The position numbers and the translations under genes were made by a program. This document shows positions 3 to 30,190 of a DNA stretch of 64,000 nucleotides, piece by piece. Numbering within the stretch: position 1 is the first letter of the stretch; each line of letters begins with the position of its first letter. The DNA is from a virus. The stretch lies in IMG/VR virus record IMGVR_UViG_3300020057_001229, positions 24,688 to 88,687 of that record. One strand, given 5' to 3'. The notes under the pieces are model-generated. The model was not told the origin of the DNA. It saw nothing but the letters and a program-made list of their open reading frames with translations, and did not search any database.

Positions 3-872
3 CTACGCAGTAGAACTAAGAGGGCAGAGTTCCTCCTCACAAACTTCCCCAGCATTGGGACTAGAATTTAAGAGGATCTCGAAGGCTCGCCGCGCTTGGA
101 GCGGTACCACTGAATTCCCAAGGGACTTAATTCTGTCCACTTGATTGGGTACCCCATTAACCACTCGCACCAATTTGGGTTCAATTTCCCACGACAAAAT
201 GGTTGCACCTCCGAGCCAGGATTCAAGATCTTCCCCTCCTCGACGATCTGAACGTAGCGACCTAGACTTAAGCTGGTCGTGTGCCCCGTCTGGGTTTCCC
301 GCCGAATGGAGCCTACCTTCGTCACTACATAGCGATCCTTTGCCCCGAGCACCGCCGCTGCCGTAGCGTCTGTCGTTGTTAAGGTGGGCAAGCATAAACC
401 AACGTTTCCTCGGGTGAGGAGCGCCAACGGCTCCAGCCGATATAACGAGCCACCTACAATCATACCGAAGTTTGGCAATCTCTCCTGTAACTTCAAGTAG
501 TCCGTTTTTGGTAATGTTGGACACGTTTTCCAAGAAGACGAAGCTAGGTCGTAGATCATCAATAAGCCTAACGACTTCGTAGAAAAGACCGCTGCGCTGT
601 CCTGCCAAGCCATGTTGACTTCCATGGCTTGAAATGTCCTGGCATGGAAATCCCCCCGTGATGAGATCAATAGAGGACTCAAAGTGATCTTTTGACAAGG
701 TTCGGACATCTCCCCAGATAGGGGCAAGATCAAGGTAACCGTCGTGCATTCTGGAGAGTAAGACACTCTGGCAAAATTTATTGTTTTCACAATATGCGAT
801 TGTTCTGGCGTAGCCTCTGAGGGAGAGGGACAAGCCCCCAATTCCGCTAAAAAGATCCAAGGCATTTAGCAT
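3..872 (-). CDS. DNA cytosine-C5 methyltransferase
   Basis: Motif I DLFSGIGG, motif IV GGFPCQ, motif VI FLENV, motif VIII HPRKR, motif X RIKSLGNSVVP. Confidence 0.93.
   Translation of the reverse strand: MLNALDLFSGIGGLSLSLRGYARTIAYCENNKFCQSVLLSRMHDGYLDLAPIWGDVRTLSKDHFESSIDLITGGFPCQDISSHGSQHGLAGQRSGLFYEVVRLIDDLRPSFVFLENVSNITKNGLLEVTGEIAKLRYDCRWLVISAGAVGAPHPRKRWFMLAHLNNDRRYGSGGARGKGSLCSDEGRLHSAGNPDGAHDQLKSRSLRSDRRGGEDLESWLGGATILSWEIEPKLVRVVNGVPNQVDRIKSLGNSVVPLQARRAFEILLNSSPNAGEVCEEELCPLSSTA
68..865 (-). CDS. Overlapping alternative-frame ORF, putative second subunit of the methyltransferase carrying motif IX
   Basis: 265-codon open frame nested in the MTase gene with LPTLTTTD and LNPNWCEWLMGYPIKWT (motif IX-like); true start uncertain. 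Confidence 0.5.
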   Translation of the reverse strand: MPWIFLAELGACPSPSEATPEQSHIVKTINFARVSYSPECTTVTLILPLSGEMSEPCQKITLSPLLISSRGDFHARTFQAMEVNMAWQDSAAVFSTKSLGLLMIYDLASSSWKTCPTLPKTDYLKLQERLPNFGMIVGGSLYRLEPLALLTRGNVGLCLPTLTTTDATAAAVLGAKDRYVVTKVGSIRRETQTGHTTSLSLGRYVQIVEEGKILNPGSEVQPFCRGKLNPNWCEWLMGYPIKWTELSPLGIQWYRSKRGEPSRSS

Positions 873-3566: not shown

Positions 3567-3641
3567 TGGCGACCCTGGCAGGAATCCAACCTGCACGAAG
3601 GCGTTAGAAGCGCCTGATGCTATGCATTACATCACAGAGTC
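3567..3641 (-). tRNA. tRNA-Arg(TCT)
   Basis: Cloverleaf GACTCTG...CAGGGTC-GCCA, anticodon loop CTTCTAA; atypical T-loop TTGGATT. Confidence 0.85.
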
Positions 3642-3693
3642 AATTGTTTGCTGAAGAGAGGGGAGTGCGAACGTAAGATGCAAACGCGGAAGG

Positions 3694-3753
3694 TTACACC
3701 CGCCTGCGTTTTGCCTTAGAGAAAGATCTTGAAGATGTAGAGAGAAAGAACAT
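3694..3753 (-). promoter_or_regulatory. Putative Arg-sensing leader peptide MFFLSTSSRSFSKAKRRRV upstream of tRNA-Arg
   Basis: AGA plus CGC-AGG-CGG just before the stop; the Arg run lies in a hairpin arm; C-rich tract follows. Confidence 0.62.
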
Positions 3754-7638: not shown

Positions 7639-7667
7639 TTGACGAAGAGACCGTACTACGATACGGT
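7639..7667 (+). promoter_or_regulatory. sigma70-like promoter of the tRNA-Pro/Leu operon
   Basis: TTGACG-N17-TACGGT; leader ATG starts 7 nt after the -10 box (leaderless). Confidence 0.6.
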
Positions 7668-7673
7668 TAATTT

Positions 7674-7727
7674 ATGCAATACTTTCTCCCTCCATTGCTA
7701 CCCCTCCTGACCAAGCTCTTACCGTAA
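7674..7727 (+). promoter_or_regulatory. Leu/Pro-sensing leader peptide MQYFLPPLLPLLTKLLP
   Basis: 7 Leu (CTC, TTG, CTA, CTG, TTA) and 4 Pro (all four codons) in 17 codons, upstream of tRNA-Pro and four tRNA-Leu. Confidence 0.78.
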
Positions 7728-7804
7728 AGGTAAAAGCAACACCGGTCCTATCTCCGTCTCTATTTTTCACCAGCTAAGTTTTTGAGGACAATCGTCATGT
7801 TAAA

Positions 7805-7957
7805 ATGACTCCATATCAGTGTTCGTGCTGTGGCTCCAAGACGACGCTCCCAACGTTGGTTTGGTTGCCTGAAAAAGCGCCAGAGATAGTTAAGGTAGAA
7901 TGTTTAAGGTGCGGGTTTGTGTGGTTGAAGCCGAAGGGCTTTAGTATCGTTCGATAA
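7805..7957 (+). CDS. Small zinc-ribbon protein (50 aa)
   Basis: CSCC...CLRC; below the ORF-track cutoff. Confidence 0.55.
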   Translation: MTPYQCSCCGSKTTLPTLVWLPEKAPEIVKVECLRCGFVWLKPKGFSIVR

Positions 7958-7958
7958 T

Positions 7959-8036
7959 CGGGCAGTGGGCTAATTGGTAAGCCGCTTGGTTTGGGACCAA
8001 GACATCATGCGAGTTCAAGTCTCGCCTGCCCGACCA
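7959..8036 (+). tRNA. tRNA-Pro(TGG)
   Basis: CGGGCAG...CTGCCCG-ACCA, loop TTTGGGA, T-loop TTCAAGT. Confidence 0.95.
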
Positions 8037-19151: not shown

Positions 19152-20642
19152 ATGCTGAAGGCAGTGCTGCGCATAGGAGGTGGTTTAGTCGCCGTGTTCG
19201 GTGTCGTGCTGGTGACGTACACACTTAAGAGGATAGACTCTTACCTCGCGGACACACCCCTGCTTCTAGGCATATCTTCGCTTACGCTGATCGCGTTTTT
19301 CTTCGGCTGGTGGTCCGCCGTCATCTCCGCGCTTGCTTTTATTACCCTCATTAAGCTCTACGTTTCGCCAGAAATCCACACGGTGTCTTTCAGTCTTTTT
19401 GTCGCTCAGACTGCGATCATTGCGGGGCTCATCGAGAAGCTAGGTAACGCACGCCGTAGCTGCTCAGACGAAGCTACCAAATGCCAAGAGACCGAACACG
19501 AGCTTCGAGCCGCAAAAGAGCACGCAGAAAGATCTAACCAGACTAAGGGAGAATTTCTAGCCAACATGAGCCACGAGCTTCGCACTCCTCTCGGTGTCAT
19601 TCTAGGCTACAGCGAAATCATAGCGAACGACACGCCTTCAAAGGAAGAGAAGATAGAATATGCTGACGCTATTAAGCGCAATGGTGAAACGTTAGCCAGA
19701 TTGATAGATGACATACTTGACCTAAGTCTTGCAGAAGCACAAAAGATAAGTATTGAAATACTACCTACATGCCTTAAAGATCTATGTACAGTTTTAGAAA
19801 AAGAGATGACGCCTCTAGCTGTACTAAAAAATATACGATTAAAGGTACACTGCGCCGATGTTCCTAATAACATACGCACTGACCCAATTCGTCTTAGACA
19901 AATACTTAGCAATCTAGTTAACAACGGTATTAAATTCACCCCTTACGGAGGTGAAGTAAGCGTGTATGTGGAAAAATATGAAGAGACGCTATGCTTCGTC
20001 GTTCGGGACAATGGTAAGGGAATTTCTACTGAAGAAGCTAAGAAGCTTTTCAAGCCCTTCTCACAAGCCGACAGCTCTACGACGCGGAAATATGGGGGGA
20101 CAGGCTTAGGCTTAGCGCTTTCTAAAAAGCTTGCTCAAAGCCTTGGCGGGGATGTTTTTTTGCGGGAAAGCGTTCCCGGCAAAGGGAGCACATTCGTTGT
20201 TCAAATCCACTTGACGCCGACATCCTTGCACGAGACCAAGAGCAAGCATAAACATTTTGACGGCGCTCTCGACGGTGTCCGAGTCCTTCTTGCCGACGAT
20301 GCCTTCGATAACAGACTGCTTTTGAAAGCGCTTTTGAAGCCAACGGGTGCGCTGCTTCGACTAGTGGAAGACGGCGAGCAAGCGCTTCAAGCTGTGCAAC
20401 AGCACGACTTTGACGTTGTTTTCTTAGATCTTCAAATGCCTATAATGGACGGCTACGAAGCTTGCCGTGCGCTGAGAAGTCAAGGCTACACAAAACCTAT
20501 CATCGCTTTGACCGCGCACGCTATGCAGGAAGAAAGAACCAAAACGAAGACTGCTGGGTTCGATGCCCATGTCACTAAGCCGGTCAACGTCGGAAACCTC
20601 GTGAGCGCAATTCGTGCCTCGCTCGACGCCAAACCGAGTTAG
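19152..20642 (+). CDS. Membrane hybrid sensor histidine kinase (HisKA-HATPase-REC)
   Basis: FLANMSHELRTPL, NGIKFT, DNGKGI, GGTGLGL, receiver LADD...DLQMP...KP. Confidence 0.96.
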   Translation: MLKAVLRIGGGLVAVFGVVLVTYTLKRIDSYLADTPLLLGISSLTLIAFFFGWWSAVISALAFITLIKLYVSPEIHTVSFSLFVAQTAIIAGLIEKLGNARRSCSDEATKCQETEHELRAAKEHAERSNQTKGEFLANMSHELRTPLGVILGYSEIIANDTPSKEEKIEYADAIKRNGETLARLIDDILDLSLAEAQKISIEILPTCLKDLCTVLEKEMTPLAVLKNIRLKVHCADVPNNIRTDPIRLRQILSNLVNNGIKFTPYGGEVSVYVEKYEETLCFVVRDNGKGISTEEAKKLFKPFSQADSSTTRKYGGTGLGLALSKKLAQSLGGDVFLRESVPGKGSTFVVQIHLTPTSLHETKSKHKHFDGALDGVRVLLADDAFDNRLLLKALLKPTGALLRLVEDGEQALQAVQQHDFDVVFLDLQMPIMDGYEACRALRSQGYTKPIIALTAHAMQEERTKTKTAGFDAHVTKPVNVGNLVSAIRASLDAKPS

Positions 20643-26981: not shown

Positions 26982-27454
26982 AAATCGTAAAAGAGAAATA
27001 TCAAATTGTAGCCAAAGATTGGTCTAACGAAACATATTGGGCTTGCTTCGCTTTCGAAGACGAGATCCCCGACGACCTCCACTGCACGCACAAGTTCTTC
27101 GGTGAACAAAGCGACGAAAGCCGGGACAAGATCTTGGAGACGATGGATTCTTACTTCGCCAAGAAACCTTACGAGACCATCCAAGCCAAGTTTGACCACG
27201 AAGAGTTCTTCGGGGCTGATAAAGACGTTCGGGTTCTTCGGCTTGAGGACGGCGCTAGCCTCGATCCGTTTCTTCTCGATCTCCGCAAGAAGCTTGACGC
27301 TTTCGCCGACGACAGCTTCCCCGGCTACAAGCCGCACGTCACGACGGACCTCCCCGTAGTCGAGAAGCCTCTGACACGCTACTGTCTTTGTCAGGGTGAC
27401 AAGATTATCAAGGAGTGGAAAGCAATGGAGAAAAAAGCAGCAGCAGCAGCTTAG
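26978..27454 (+). CDS. 2H phosphoesterase (Acb1/gp57B-like)
   Basis: Two HxT motifs LHCTH and YKPHVT; ATGA-coupled start MKIVKEKYQIVA. Confidence 0.82.
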   Translation: MKIVKEKYQIVAKDWSNETYWACFAFEDEIPDDLHCTHKFFGEQSDESRDKILETMDSYFAKKPYETIQAKFDHEEFFGADKDVRVLRLEDGASLDPFLLDLRKKLDAFADDSFPGYKPHVTTDLPVVEKPLTRYCLCQGDKIIKEWKAMEKKAAAAA

Positions 27455-27456
27455 GG

Positions 27457-27485
27457 TTGACGAGTTCTGTGAGAGCTGCTAGGAT
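27457..27485 (+). promoter_or_regulatory. sigma70-like promoter of the tRNA-Asn/Glu operon
   Basis: TTGACG-N17-TAGGAT. Confidence 0.75.
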
Positions 27486-27507
27486 TTGGGTAATGGGAGT
27501 TCACAAA

Positions 27508-27549
27508 ATGTTCCGTTCCGTAAATAACAATAATGAAGAAACAAGCTAG
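27508..27549 (+). promoter_or_regulatory. Asn(/Glu)-sensing leader peptide MFRSVNNNNEETS
   Basis: GGAG RBS; AAT AAC AAT AAT GAA GAA; alternative in-frame ATG at 27493. Confidence 0.85.
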
Positions 27550-27603
27550 GGTCGAAAGTCCTTTCTGGCTTACGACCCGTTTGGTAACCCAAGCGGGTTT
27601 TTT
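27549..27603 (+). terminator. Attenuator: overlapping antiterminator and intrinsic terminator
   Basis: GGGTCG(27549)/CGACCC(27573) competes with ACCCGTTTGG-TAAC-CCAAGCGGGT-TTTTT. Confidence 0.82.
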
Positions 27604-27620
27604 ATTTGTATCGAATTTAT

Positions 27621-27698
27621 TCCGGTGTGGGGGAAGTTGGTAATCCCGCCTCGCTGTTACCGAGGAGCATGTACGTTCGATCCGTACCACCGGAGCCA
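27621..27698 (+). tRNA. tRNA-Asn(GTT)
   Basis: TCCGGTG...CACCGGA-GCCA, loop CTGTTAC. Confidence 0.93.
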
Positions 27699-27946
27699 AC
27701 TTTTTTAAAGGACACCATGAGAACTTTGAACACGCATCCGAATTGTCCGCCGACTGTCAGCAAAAACTCTGACGGTACCTTTACTGCACACGACATCGGC
27801 GAGATGTTGGATTGGCTTGCGGGAAGTCATGGGGACAGCGGTGTCCTGAAAATGTTGGCTCCAATGAAAGCAGTTGATACAGGTCGAGTCAGTGGTGTTG
27901 AGCCTGATGTTAGCGTTAGTTTAGGAAGTTACGAAGTGTGTGTAGT

Positions 27947-28450
27947 TTAAGCAGTTTCTAGCCTTATTTCTTGGTGTATTTCACGGTGGCAGTTAGCGCA
28001 GACCATAACACATTTGTCTAATTCTTGTTTTGTACGTTCCCAAGATCTAGTGTGTCCTCCTTGAGAGGGATTGAAATCTTTCACGTTAGGGTCGAGATGG
28101 TGAAACTCAAGGGCGCTTACGCATTTACTGTAGCCGCAACGAGCACAGGAGCCTCCTTTATATGCAATAGATAGCTGCTTTAACTCTCGTCTTCTGTTCG
28201 TTACTTTGTCTTTACTGTTACAGTTTATCGAGCAGAAACGTGTTTGGGTTCCAGTTAGAGGTTTTTGGCATACGTGCCATGTGCAATAGTTTCCGTTAGG
28301 TAGAGGGTTGCGTTCGTTTAGTGAGCGGGTATTGTGTAAGCCAAAGGGCGAGCAAGTAAGACAAAATTTGCGGTTACACAAATTTCTTTTTTTACCGTCA
28401 ATTACAGTGTTTATTGAGAAATGTGTGTTGCACTTTAGACAAGTAGGCAT
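27947..28450 (-). CDS. HNH endonuclease with N-terminal zinc fingers
   Basis: YKGGSCARCGY...ALEFHHLDP...ELDKCVMVCANCHREIH. Confidence 0.88.
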   Translation of the reverse strand: MPTCLKCNTHFSINTVIDGKKRNLCNRKFCLTCSPFGLHNTRSLNERNPLPNGNYCTWHVCQKPLTGTQTRFCSINCNSKDKVTNRRRELKQLSIAYKGGSCARCGYSKCVSALEFHHLDPNVKDFNPSQGGHTRSWERTKQELDKCVMVCANCHREIHQEIRLETA

Positions 28451-28515
28451 AAGTGTTTTCCGTAGCTAAGAGTTGGGTAACCAAATGGTGTTACTTAATC
28501 TAAGCGACGGTCATG

Positions 28516-28603
28516 GGGAGAGTAGCCTATCGGCACGAGGCAGCGGCTTGTTAAGCCGCCAGTGGACGTAAGTCCGAAGTGGGTTCGATTCCCACCTCTC
28601 CCT
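28516..28603 (+). tRNA. Atypical tRNA with GTT (Asn) anticodon and long variable arm
   Basis: GGGAGAG/CTCTCCC acceptor, GCGGC-TTGTTAA-GCCGC, GGAC-GTAA-GTCC variable arm, TTCGATT; no encoded CCA. Confidence 0.8.
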
Positions 28604-28629
28604 CTTTTTTTCTATAAGGAATTTTCGAT

Positions 28630-28671
28630 ATGCTGTTTCGACTAGAAGAAGAACAAATTAATTCGGGCTGA
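28630..28671 (+). promoter_or_regulatory. Glu-sensing leader peptide MLFRLEEEQINSG
   Basis: AAGGA RBS; GAA GAA GAA; 3' end TCGGGC is complementary to the terminator 5' arm. Confidence 0.85.
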
Positions 28672-28698
28672 GAGAGTCGGTAACGACAACTCTTTTAT

Positions 28699-28725
28699 GC
28701 CCGATCTTTGGATCGGGCTTTTTTT
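28699..28725 (+). terminator. Attenuator terminator directly before the tRNA-Glu genes
   Basis: GCCCGATC-TTTG-GATCGGGC-TTTTTTT. Confidence 0.88.
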
Positions 28726-28729
28726 ATGT

Positions 28730-28804
28730 GGCGTGCTCGTCTAGTGGTTAGGACGCTTGGTTCTCAGCCAGGAAAGAGGGGTTCAATTCCCCTGCACGCC
28801 TCCA
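28730..28804 (+). tRNA. tRNA-Glu(CTC)
   Basis: GGCGTGC...GCACGCC-TCCA, loop TTCTCAG. Confidence 0.92.
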
Positions 28805-28809
28805 AGTTC

Positions 28810-28883
28810 GGCGCATTCGTCTATTGGTAGGATTTCAGAATTTCAATCTGAAGAAAGGGGTTCAATTCCCCTATGCGTCACCA
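28810..28883 (+). tRNA. tRNA-Glu(TTC)
   Basis: GGCGCAT...ATGCGTC-ACCA, loop ATTTCAA. Confidence 0.92.
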
Positions 28884-28937
28884 CTTTACACATTAAAGAT
28901 TCAGTGTCAGCCCAGCACCCGCAAGGAGCTTTGACGC

Positions 28938-29693
28938 ATGAATCGCACTCTCTCCGGTTGGTTATCTGCTCACGAAGCGATATGTCCTTCGTGGAGAGAG
29001 TTTGTGCATCACGACCTACCCTTCGATCACTTAGCACTTAGAACCTTTGCTCACTACGGCGTCGGACAAGACCTCGGTCTAGATGCTCTCAGCTCCATGA
29101 TCTGCCAAGACATGGGTTACAAAGTAGCAGCCGAGTACAACCTAACTGAAAAAAAGGTACGAGCTTACTACCTCGAACGTCAAGACTACCCCAAGATCTT
29201 TATCAGCGAGCTTCTTTGGAGGGAGTTCACTGAAGATGTCCAAAAGGTTTTAGAACGTGTTTTGTCCCACAATGCACCTGTAAGGCTTGCGCCGTGGCTC
29301 TTCAAAGGAACTAGACCTTGGATCAACGCAAGTAAAGAGGACTACGACGCGGTAGCTAAGGAGTCTAGCTACGGCGCTTGGCTGATTGCTTGGGGTTATG
29401 TCGCCAACCACTTCGCCGTTCACCTCAGCATGGACAAGTCGATAGCTCTCTGCAAAAGTCTCAACTTGTCGATGAATGGTGACGGCAAAGTGCAAGGCTC
29501 TAAGAGTGTAGGTTTAGAACAGTGCTCCACGAAGGCGGATCAAATTGTCCACCCACTCTTCGGAGCCTATCTCGACGGCGGCTTCGTTGAGTTCGTTCAG
29601 CGTTGGCAAGACCCCCAAGATCCATTCAAGCTCTACTCCGGCTTCGTAGAGAAGTCGGCAAGCAAAGTCATGGAGTCTACGGGGGAGCGTTGA
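28938..29693 (+). CDS. DUF1338-family (2-oxoadipate dioxygenase/decarboxylase-like, VOC fold) protein
   Basis: DHLALRT, PKIFISEL, S.YGAW, NHF, LEQ.ST.AD, FVEF..R, GF...A..VMEST. Confidence 0.8.
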   Translation: MNRTLSGWLSAHEAICPSWREFVHHDLPFDHLALRTFAHYGVGQDLGLDALSSMICQDMGYKVAAEYNLTEKKVRAYYLERQDYPKIFISELLWREFTEDVQKVLERVLSHNAPVRLAPWLFKGTRPWINASKEDYDAVAKESSYGAWLIAWGYVANHFAVHLSMDKSIALCKSLNLSMNGDGKVQGSKSVGLEQCSTKADQIVHPLFGAYLDGGFVEFVQRWQDPQDPFKLYSGFVEKSASKVMESTGER

Positions 29694-29821
29694 AAAAAGC
29701 TCCCGGTCGATCTCGTCACATTCCCTGTTTATCTCCTGAGTTACGGTCCAATACTCTAAAAGATCTTCGATCACAATTCCCATAAAAAAGCCCCCCTTGG
29801 TAAAGAGAGGCTTTTAGTAGT

Positions 29822-30190
29822 TTACGGCGGCAGATGTCGAGCGACATCAAAGGTCCGCCACGGACATCCGTGAGCTTTAAACCATGACACTAGCTCCGCA
29901 CGCTCGCTGTCGGACGGCTGCGTAGGAAACCTAGAAGGGGGCATCTTTTTCTCTTCGGCTTCGTGAGCAGCTTTGCGAGCAAACGCTGCGGCGTGCTCCG
30001 TCGTGTCGAGGACGACGTTTGCCTTCGGTTCGGGACCGCTATGACATCTAGCACAGTAGGTGGTCAGAAGCTCTTGAGCCCTTGCGTCAGTAACCGCAGC
30101 AGGTGCAGGAGTGTCGTCGTGGTTAGACCCTTTGTCGTCACCACAGCCAGTCAGAAGCAGTGCAAGAGCAAGGCTTGAACGTAATAGTAT
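29822..30190 (-). CDS. c-type cytochrome lipoprotein with ATA start (missing from the ORF track)
   Basis: Lipobox LLTGC, haem motif CARCH, distal MPP and W; G-rich RBS before ATA. Confidence 0.75.
   Translation of the reverse strand: MLLRSSLALALLLTGCGDDKGSNHDDTPAPAAVTDARAQELLTTYCARCHSGPEPKANVVLDTTEHAAAFARKAAHEAEEKKMPPSRFPTQPSDSERAELVSWFKAHGCPWRTFDVARHLPP

Follow-up and report, generated by a model that had tools for sequence, protein, structure and literature searches.

The stretch analysed here, called the window below, comprises 64,000 nucleotides and corresponds to bases 24688-88687 of the virus record IMGVR_UViG_3300020057_001229, a single contig of 88,687 bp with 48 % G+C. It contains two neighbouring tRNA-Glu genes preceded by a short leader with three consecutive GAA codons and by an intrinsic terminator, an arrangement referred to here as the Glu unit. 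As judged from sequence and modelled folds, this unit is probably a ribosome-mediated (leader-peptide) transcription attenuator of tRNA genes.

A major head protein of phages (PHROG 2522, E 6e-59) and HNH endonucleases are among the products of the record. Relatives of its major capsid protein (68-82 % identity) are located on contigs of up to 351 kb, so that the record probably represents only part of a very large phage genome. DNA near-identical to the record is contained in microbial-mat metagenomes. The 15 tRNA genes of the record form six groups, and ten of these genes are inside the window. Shine-Dalgarno (SD) cores were encountered upstream of 37 of the 62 long open reading frames (ORFs) of the genome, against 13 % of random positions; SD-led initiation is used by this genome. 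GAA represents 55 % of its Glu codons, and codon usage gave no hint.

The features of the locus are gathered in Table 1. A sequence-only reading of this DNA had described an AAGGA ribosome-binding site followed by the leader; both were recovered where that reading had placed them, its starting point of 28615 being one base before AAGGA. It had also announced a strong terminator ending 4 nt before tRNA-Glu(CTC), and this site was detected in a terminator scan as well. The arms of the terminator are GCCCGATC (28699-28706) and GATCGGGC (28711-28718), followed by seven T residues at 28719-28725 (T7). The complementarity between TCGGGC (28663-28668) and GCCCGA, likewise noted from the letters, is real, yet it is only the foot of a larger hairpin. 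The 5' arm of this antiterminator is composed of leader codons 12 and 13, the stop codon and eight more nucleotides, while its 3' arm ends in GCCCGA, which is taken from the 5' arm of the terminator; the inner stem is capped by GUAA.

Table 1. Features of the Glu unit, of the Asn unit and of the genes around them (window coordinates)
Feature	Position	Strand	Remarks
Promoter-like site of the Asn unit, TTGACG-17-TAGGAT	27457-27485	+	nearest upstream promoter candidate on the strand
Asn leader MFRSVNNNNEETS + TAG	27508-27549	+	13 codons; an in-frame ATG at 27493 would give 18
Asn antiterminator, GGGTCG/CGACCC	27549-27578	+	starts at last base of the stop codon; GACCC common with the terminator
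Asn terminator	27574-27599	+	followed by a T run
tRNA-Asn(GTT)	27621-27698	+	ARAGORN; fair cloverleaf, encoded CCA
HNH endonuclease gene	27947-28450	-	PHROG 2255, E 1.3e-41; between the Asn and Glu units
89-nt tRNA, long variable arm, anticodon GTT	28516-28604	+	ARAGORN; Rfam tRNA, 52.6 bits
SD sequence AAGGA	28616-28620	+	9-nt spacer to ATG
Glu leader ORF MLFRLEEEQINSG + TGA	28630-28671	+	13 codons; ATG 28630-28632, TGA 28669-28671
Regulatory codons GAA GAA GAA (codons 6-8)	28645-28653	+	decoded by tRNA-Glu(UUC)
Antiterminator, 17-bp hairpin	28663-28704	+	folding
Middle hairpin, then U-rich tract	28670-28694	+	-9.3 kcal/mol; compatible with the terminator
Intrinsic terminator, 8-bp stem (6 G-C), loop TTTG, T7	28699-28725	+	terminator scan; -14.6 kcal/mol
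tRNA-Glu(CTC), first gated gene	28730-28804	+	ARAGORN, Rfam; begins 4 nt past T7
tRNA-Glu(TTC), second gated gene	28810-28883	+	ARAGORN, Rfam; cognate to leader GAA
orf251, HGLS (PF07063) domain	28938-29693	+	54 nt 3' of tRNA-Glu(TTC)

Predicted folds and the proposed switch

The 46-nt antiterminator had a folding energy of -22.3 kcal/mol, while shuffled versions averaged -8.95 kcal/mol (z -5.75; none out of 200 was equally stable). It was the minimum free energy (MFE) fold of transcripts ending at 28706, 28710 and 28714, and the combination of middle hairpin and terminator won only after 28718 had been made, with -23.9 and then, including the U tract, -25.1 kcal/mol. In these models the antiterminator and terminator states are mutually exclusive and nearly equal in energy, and the antiterminator has a head start. 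The middle hairpin would act as a pause hairpin. When the gain in energy obtained by pairing the 5' arm of a terminator with upstream sequence was compared over 20 terminator-like sites, the Glu unit ranked first (-13.0 kcal/mol) and the Asn unit second (-10.4 kcal/mol), the next value being -5.7 kcal/mol.

The effect of a ribosome was modelled by masking positions P-12 to P+15 as an assumed footprint. In the masked folds, whichever of the three GAA codons occupied the A site, the ribosome covered nucleotides up to 28663 at most, and the antiterminator arm remained available for pairing. With the ribosome placed at the stop codon, 28654-28681 were covered; the antiterminator and the middle hairpin were then lost and the terminator alone was left. 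The interpretation as a Glu attenuator, already advanced by the sequence-only reading, is thereby supported: an SD-led ORF, a cognate codon run, a terminator, an exclusive antiterminator and a suitable masking geometry were all found.

Sequence and folding show which parts are present, that the alternative folds exclude each other and how a ribosome would mask them; that the leader is translated and coupled to transcription, that polymerase pauses, that the switch operates and that the Asn and Glu units are co-transcribed is our inference. The gate, set over the two tRNA-Glu genes and probably also over orf251, would respond to the speed of GAA decoding. RNA polymerase arriving from upstream would transcribe the 13-codon leader. 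With Glu-tRNA(UUC) in plentiful supply, the ribosome would reach TGA and cover approximately 28654-28681, a segment in which the 5' arm of the antiterminator is entirely included; the terminator stem of 8 bp would then form and transcription would end in T7, 4 nt before tRNA-Glu(CTC). With slow decoding of GAA, the ribosome would wait at codons 6-8 with its front edge at approximately 28657-28663, the antiterminator would form once GCCCGA had been made, ahead of the 3' arm of the terminator, and polymerase would continue into the tRNA genes. Newly made tRNA-Glu(UUC) would re-accelerate translation of the leader, which would constitute a negative feedback loop.

Other tRNA units, chance expectation and natural variation

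A comparable layout was encountered at the Asn unit, whose leader displays four Asn codons together with two GAA codons. The likeness of both leaders, already pointed out from the letters, extends to their length of 13 codons, to a run beginning at codon 6 and to a stop codon situated 24 or 27 nt before the terminator arm. A collinear alignment of both units gave 56 identical columns out of 136, too few for the units to be considered as duplicates. In the MFE fold of free RNA, the purine run GAAGAA of the leader was paired with the U tract of the terminator in the Glu unit (28645-28653 with 28719-28725) and in the Asn unit (27535-27541 with the T run); this may be a by-product of composition, or it may be a reason for the GAA codons of the Asn leader.

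Outside the window, a Ser/Thr unit (genome 10535-10668, minus strand) displayed the same layout as the Glu unit. Its leader MKNFVSTTSSCSTSSTTEGG is followed by a protein gene and then by three tRNA-Ser genes and one tRNA-Thr gene, and the last codons of the leader pair with the 5' arm of a strong terminator if the modelled ribosome is placed in the Ser/Thr run but not if it is placed at the stop codon. In the Glu, Asn and Ser/Thr units alike, the foot of the antiterminator is formed by the last codons, the stop codon or both. Two additional leaders were less complete. A Pro/Leu-rich leader precedes Pro/Leu tRNAs (window 7674-7960) and an Arg-containing leader precedes an Arg tRNA (window 3567-3753, minus strand); no intrinsic terminator was found between these two leaders and their tRNAs, so that a Rho-dependent or other mechanism would be needed there. 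C-rich tracts follow both leaders. The tRNA-Met gene (genome 15729-15840, minus strand, outside the window) has a promoter-like sequence, TTGACT-16-TAGATT, directly in front and no leader, and it is the sole tRNA group without a test ORF.

The share of cognate codons amounted to 11 of 19 in the Ser/Thr leader, 11 of 16 in the Pro/Leu leader, six of 12 in the Asn leader (Asn and Glu together), three of 12 in the Glu leader and four of 18 in the Arg leader, the operon-level tRNA sets used in this comparison having been defined after the data were seen. Matches between leaders and non-cognate tRNA groups were small, with the exception of the Arg leader, which contains more Ser/Thr than Arg codons.

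Chance expectation was derived from a census of small ORFs (ATG start, 8-30 codons), in which the two strands of the 88,687-bp genome together yielded 739 distinct ones. Runs of at least three identical residues were present in 75 of them, including two with Glu, one with Asn and 18 with Arg. One of the two Glu-run ORFs ends 58 nt 5' of tRNA-Glu, the sole Asn-run ORF ends 71 nt 5' of tRNA-Asn, and one of the 18 Arg-run ORFs ends 52 nt 5' of tRNA-Arg. Under uniform placement, 0.068 such ORFs would be expected to end within 100 nt upstream of a cognate tRNA, while three were observed (Poisson P = 5e-5).

Several sequencing runs were compared with the locus. Runs X3, X4 and X6 displayed the same leader and terminator as the window; sample type and year are those of the likely source, and these runs are not independent of it. 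Run X5 belongs to a different study. One of its contigs joins 27914 to 28455 and skips 540 nt (27915-28454), so that the HNH gene is gone; judged from this joint, the HNH gene with its flanks (27915-28454) is an insertion polymorphism. The joint makes the Asn unit, a small ORF (27717-27950), the odd GTT tRNA and the Glu unit contiguous, and it alters the C-terminus of the small ORF. The X5 contig of the Glu unit (212 nt, depth 4.2) spans 28651-28868 and displays 24 substitutions and eight gaps, all at or after 28698. The terminator stem is preserved, as T28705>G is accompanied by A28712>C and a T-A pair thereby becomes G-C; the four bases of the loop are all different, and the T run is shorter by one. 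The base bulged out of the antiterminator, T28698, is replaced by C; GCCCGA, TCGGGC and the leader are unchanged. The compensatory change supports selection on the terminator hairpin. In the Asn unit, an X5 contig diverges from the window upstream of 27542; its 30 loose letters there contain ten sense codons and no stop when translated in the reference frame. This part of the leader and the window letters following it hold three Asn and two Glu codons (four and two in the reference), and several of the changes are synonymous. A one-base insertion was present in the loop of the Asn antiterminator.

Transcription of the Glu unit was considered with the help of two promoter scans, one based on a sigma-70-like consensus and one on the stricter pattern TTGACN-16..18-TANNNT. 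On the plus strand between 26500 and 30000, the consensus scan returned one promoter-like site, that of the Asn unit, and none within 27486-30000, a range that includes the leader and the gap between the terminator and tRNA-Glu. The stricter pattern was matched 12 times in the genome (about eight expected by chance); four of these matches immediately precede the Met, Arg, Pro/Leu and Asn units, and the Glu leader is not preceded by any. Two candidates closer to the Glu unit were rejected, as both fail the consensus scan: TATAAG (28613-28618) displays G at its sixth position, and TTGGGT-17-TAATCT (28473-28501) has a weak first hexamer, and its A at 28497 is G in X5. The SD sequence and the leader are situated 12 nt and 26 nt, respectively, past the 89-nt tRNA. 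Because the leader starts so close to this tRNA and uses an SD sequence, it must be transcribed from upstream, and it is probably co-transcribed with the 89-nt tRNA. A serial action of the Asn and Glu gates is plausible and would be the simplest reading, because no sigma-70-like promoter was found between them, the HNH gene is missing in a variant and the first leader has both Asn and Glu codons.

Counter-evidence and rival explanations

Several observations weigh against attenuation of the tRNA-Glu genes, beginning with the leader itself. Its composition alone is modest (three Glu codons out of 12, binomial p = 0.009), and all three are GAA, so that GAG, the codon of tRNA-Glu(CTC), is unsampled. 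The identical X5 leader, seen in one contig at a depth of about 4, is uninformative on codon constraint, since the DNA 5' of 28698 shows next to no differences. The folds raise further doubts. In full-length RNA the antiterminator state is less favourable than the terminator state by 2.8 kcal/mol, and read-through would therefore depend on the order of folding. Ribosome-free RNA is predicted to fold as antiterminator and displays no sequestering pairing of the 1:2 type known from trp, so that the default without ribosomes would be read-through. Sequestering pairing of this kind is typical of trp, and its standing as a defining feature of attenuators in general is a matter of our own judgement.

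Transcription adds to this list. A promoter of its own was not found for the Glu unit in the sigma-70-like scans, and reading from the Asn promoter would have to cover about 1.1 kb and to pass through the antisense HNH gene. A further T7 run (28605-28611), located directly after the 89-nt tRNA, might stop some polymerases before the leader. Finally, orf251 is probably also under the gate because no promoter-like site separates it from tRNA-Glu(TTC), and the tRNAs are perhaps neither its sole nor its main target.

The design was also not recovered in related phages. The survey comprised 15 tRNA-rich stretches of 14 records (258 tRNAs according to ARAGORN), taken from 26 with tRNA matches among 35 searched. 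A permutation screen considered ATG ORFs of 7-45 codons within 450 nt and a run screen considered ATG, GTG or TTG ORFs of 8-30 codons within 150 nt, and other leader designs could be missed by both. In G001, a 236-kb relative with a capsid protein 70 % identical, none of the three tRNAs had a cognate leader, and no cassette followed the homologues of the two genes located upstream of the Asn unit. In 14 further records (capsid identity 35-47 %), cognate-rich upstream ORFs were as frequent as in the permuted null, with five, one and one cases against 4.9, 1.1 and 0.3 at p<1e-2, p<1e-3 and p<1e-4, respectively (395 ORFs, 155 block starts, G000 included). As far as these sequences tell, the attenuator design is not a family trait and is absent from the 15 related records. 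In the 14 records, which served as a negative control, a single small ORF with a cognate run was situated at most 150 nt 5' of a tRNA; the present genome has four distinct ones, of which one, a Ser-run ORF before tRNA-Ser(GGA), may be due to chance. The single control match, from G016, was rejected as a leader, as it is the tail of a 66-codon gene conserved in two records. This gene of about 66 codons is situated between tRNA-Arg(CCT) and tRNA-Glu(TTC) in G016 (L163 8483-8682) and G003, and it mimics a Glu-rich leader in crude screens.

Direct searches for the locus were similarly unproductive. A blastn search of 27400-29600 against phage records returned fragments of tRNA-Glu and HNH genes only, and tblastn with the 1049-residue neighbour protein gave no match. 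No related locus was found in viral contigs with orf251 and its 55 % relative P0090, the back-translated leader pattern had no match in viral contigs, and a capsid-alignment scan of genome contigs returned one 3-kb contig only.

Among the rival explanations, the simplest is that the terminator is an ordinary constitutive one closing the upstream tRNA unit, that the ORF is there by chance and that the Glu tRNAs arise from leak-through or from an unrecognised phage-type promoter. The low share of Glu codons in the leader and the absence of the design from related phages are in its favour, and large phages often carry promoters that are invisible to sigma-70 scans. It is nevertheless unlikely. 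The tRNA begins only 4 nt past the T run, and leader and terminator are free of overlapping promoter-like sites. A Glu-run ORF is one of two among 739, the antiterminator is far more stable than its shuffled versions and ranks first among the 20 terminator-like sites, and the layout with matching codons recurs at the Asn and Ser/Thr units.

An improbability of the same order is attached to a classical amino-acid attenuator acting on orf251. In that case the product of orf251 would serve a pathway towards 2-oxoglutarate and glutamate and would be induced when glutamate is short, with the tRNAs as passengers. The protein of about 250 residues carries PF07063; HGLS designates a 2-oxoadipate dioxygenase/decarboxylase, and the family is presumably linked to 2-hydroxyglutarate and 2-oxoglutarate. 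The gene is close to the tRNAs with no promoter-like site in between. The Pfam match is limited to residues 130-203, however, and it is a tRNA that the terminator directly abuts. Moreover, four other leaders of this genome match downstream tRNAs and no enzyme, which argues for tRNAs as the common target. The orf251 family is widespread in metagenome contigs, with 488 loci confirmed in one scan; the 80 loci listed displayed 33-39 % identity, were apparently bacterial and comprised only two tRNAs, the contig of P0090 not being among them.

A translation-independent RNA switch, with the GAA run or the hairpins as binding site for a protein or, as in a T-box, for the tRNA itself, is very unlikely. 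The GAA run does pair with the U tract in the MFE fold of free RNA, and base pairing between a codon run and an anticodon is conceivable, but no T-box or other cis-regulatory family was matched at E<=1, the antiterminator is devoid of a UGG bulge, and in three units the antiterminator has an SD sequence, an ATG and an in-frame stop positioned precisely at its foot. Just as remote is a processing or stability element, whose hairpins would guide RNase cleavage or protect the 3' ends of the upstream tRNA transcript: the hairpins are indeed located between tRNAs and tRNA clusters are heavily processed, but the T7 tract, the codon match and the exclusive folds of three units would be left unexplained.

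Relation to known systems and neighbouring features

Leader-peptide attenuation is textbook knowledge for amino-acid operons. The leaders trpL, hisL, pheL, leuL, thrL and ilvL likewise combine a short SD-led ORF, a run of regulatory codons and a choice between terminator and antiterminator, and the Asn (Asn and Glu), Ser/Thr and Pro/Leu leaders resemble the multivalent type represented by thrL and ilvL. The Glu unit differs from the enterobacterial attenuators in being phage-borne and in gating tRNAs rather than biosynthetic enzymes, so that the signal would feed back on decoding capacity itself. It differs from trp in lacking a pairing of the 1:2 type, and its untranslated leader is predicted to read through. 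The pheM leader of Escherichia coli pheST offers a precedent for cognate-codon attenuation of the translation apparatus, and not of amino-acid synthesis, as in the Glu unit; the target of pheM is a synthetase protein, while that of the Glu unit is a tRNA. T-box riboswitches also couple the status of a tRNA to the choice between terminator and antiterminator upstream of translation-related genes, but they bind uncharged tRNA directly and need no translation, whereas the Glu unit carries an ORF. Neither a T-box nor an Rfam amino-acid leader family (His, Leu, Thr, Trp, Phe) was matched in 27300-29000 at E<=1.

The attenuator class, in which the position of a ribosome chooses between folds, is described in extracts of PMC1183508 and PMC3082878. 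With tRNA genes, a known mechanism would be applied here to a new target class, and no paper on attenuation of tRNA genes was found in full-text literature searches. According to PMC11555353, phage tRNAs replace host tRNAs depleted by defence systems and rescue the phage, and their level of expression is important; the paper addresses strong promoters only and nowhere contains the stem 'attenuat', while supply from the Glu unit would be conditional.

If attenuation holds, codon decoding speed would feed back directly on tRNA supply, and phage tRNA arrays would be regulated on demand instead of being constitutive helpers of codon bias. Each leader would name the codons that are of concern to the phage and thereby provide a testable handle on its choice of tRNAs, and such units could serve as compact codon-specific sensors in synthetic biology. 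The Glu locus would be a clean case, with one amino acid, 100 nt, two tRNAs and an internal second gate within an operon. A wider and rather doubtful extension is that the phage measures decoding in a codon-specific way, with a separate meter for each tRNA block, and that a block is turned on solely if ribosomes slow down at the codons which this block serves. Loss of host tRNAs to an anticodon-nuclease defence or to host shut-off would then be detected and repaired, with a gate for Asn and Glu followed by a nested gate for Glu only; the tRNAs would represent a homeostatic counter-defence on demand and not a constitutive aid to codon usage.

Some neighbouring features deserve mention. The 89-nt tRNA combines a class II body with the Asn anticodon GTT and has no encoded CCA. 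The tRNA-Asn(GTT) gene at 27621-27698, detected by ARAGORN, was unlisted by the Rfam tRNA model at E<=1. ATG codons were noticed 6-7 nt past the candidate -10 element in the Asn unit (27493) and in the Pro/Leu unit (about 7674), as seen in 27480-27510 and 7639-7680 of the window, and both leaders may be translated from leaderless mRNAs; the second in-frame ATG of the Asn unit is preceded by GGGAG as SD sequence. Farther upstream, a gene at 19152-20642 of the window encodes a hybrid histidine kinase with HisKA, HATPase_c and receiver domains.

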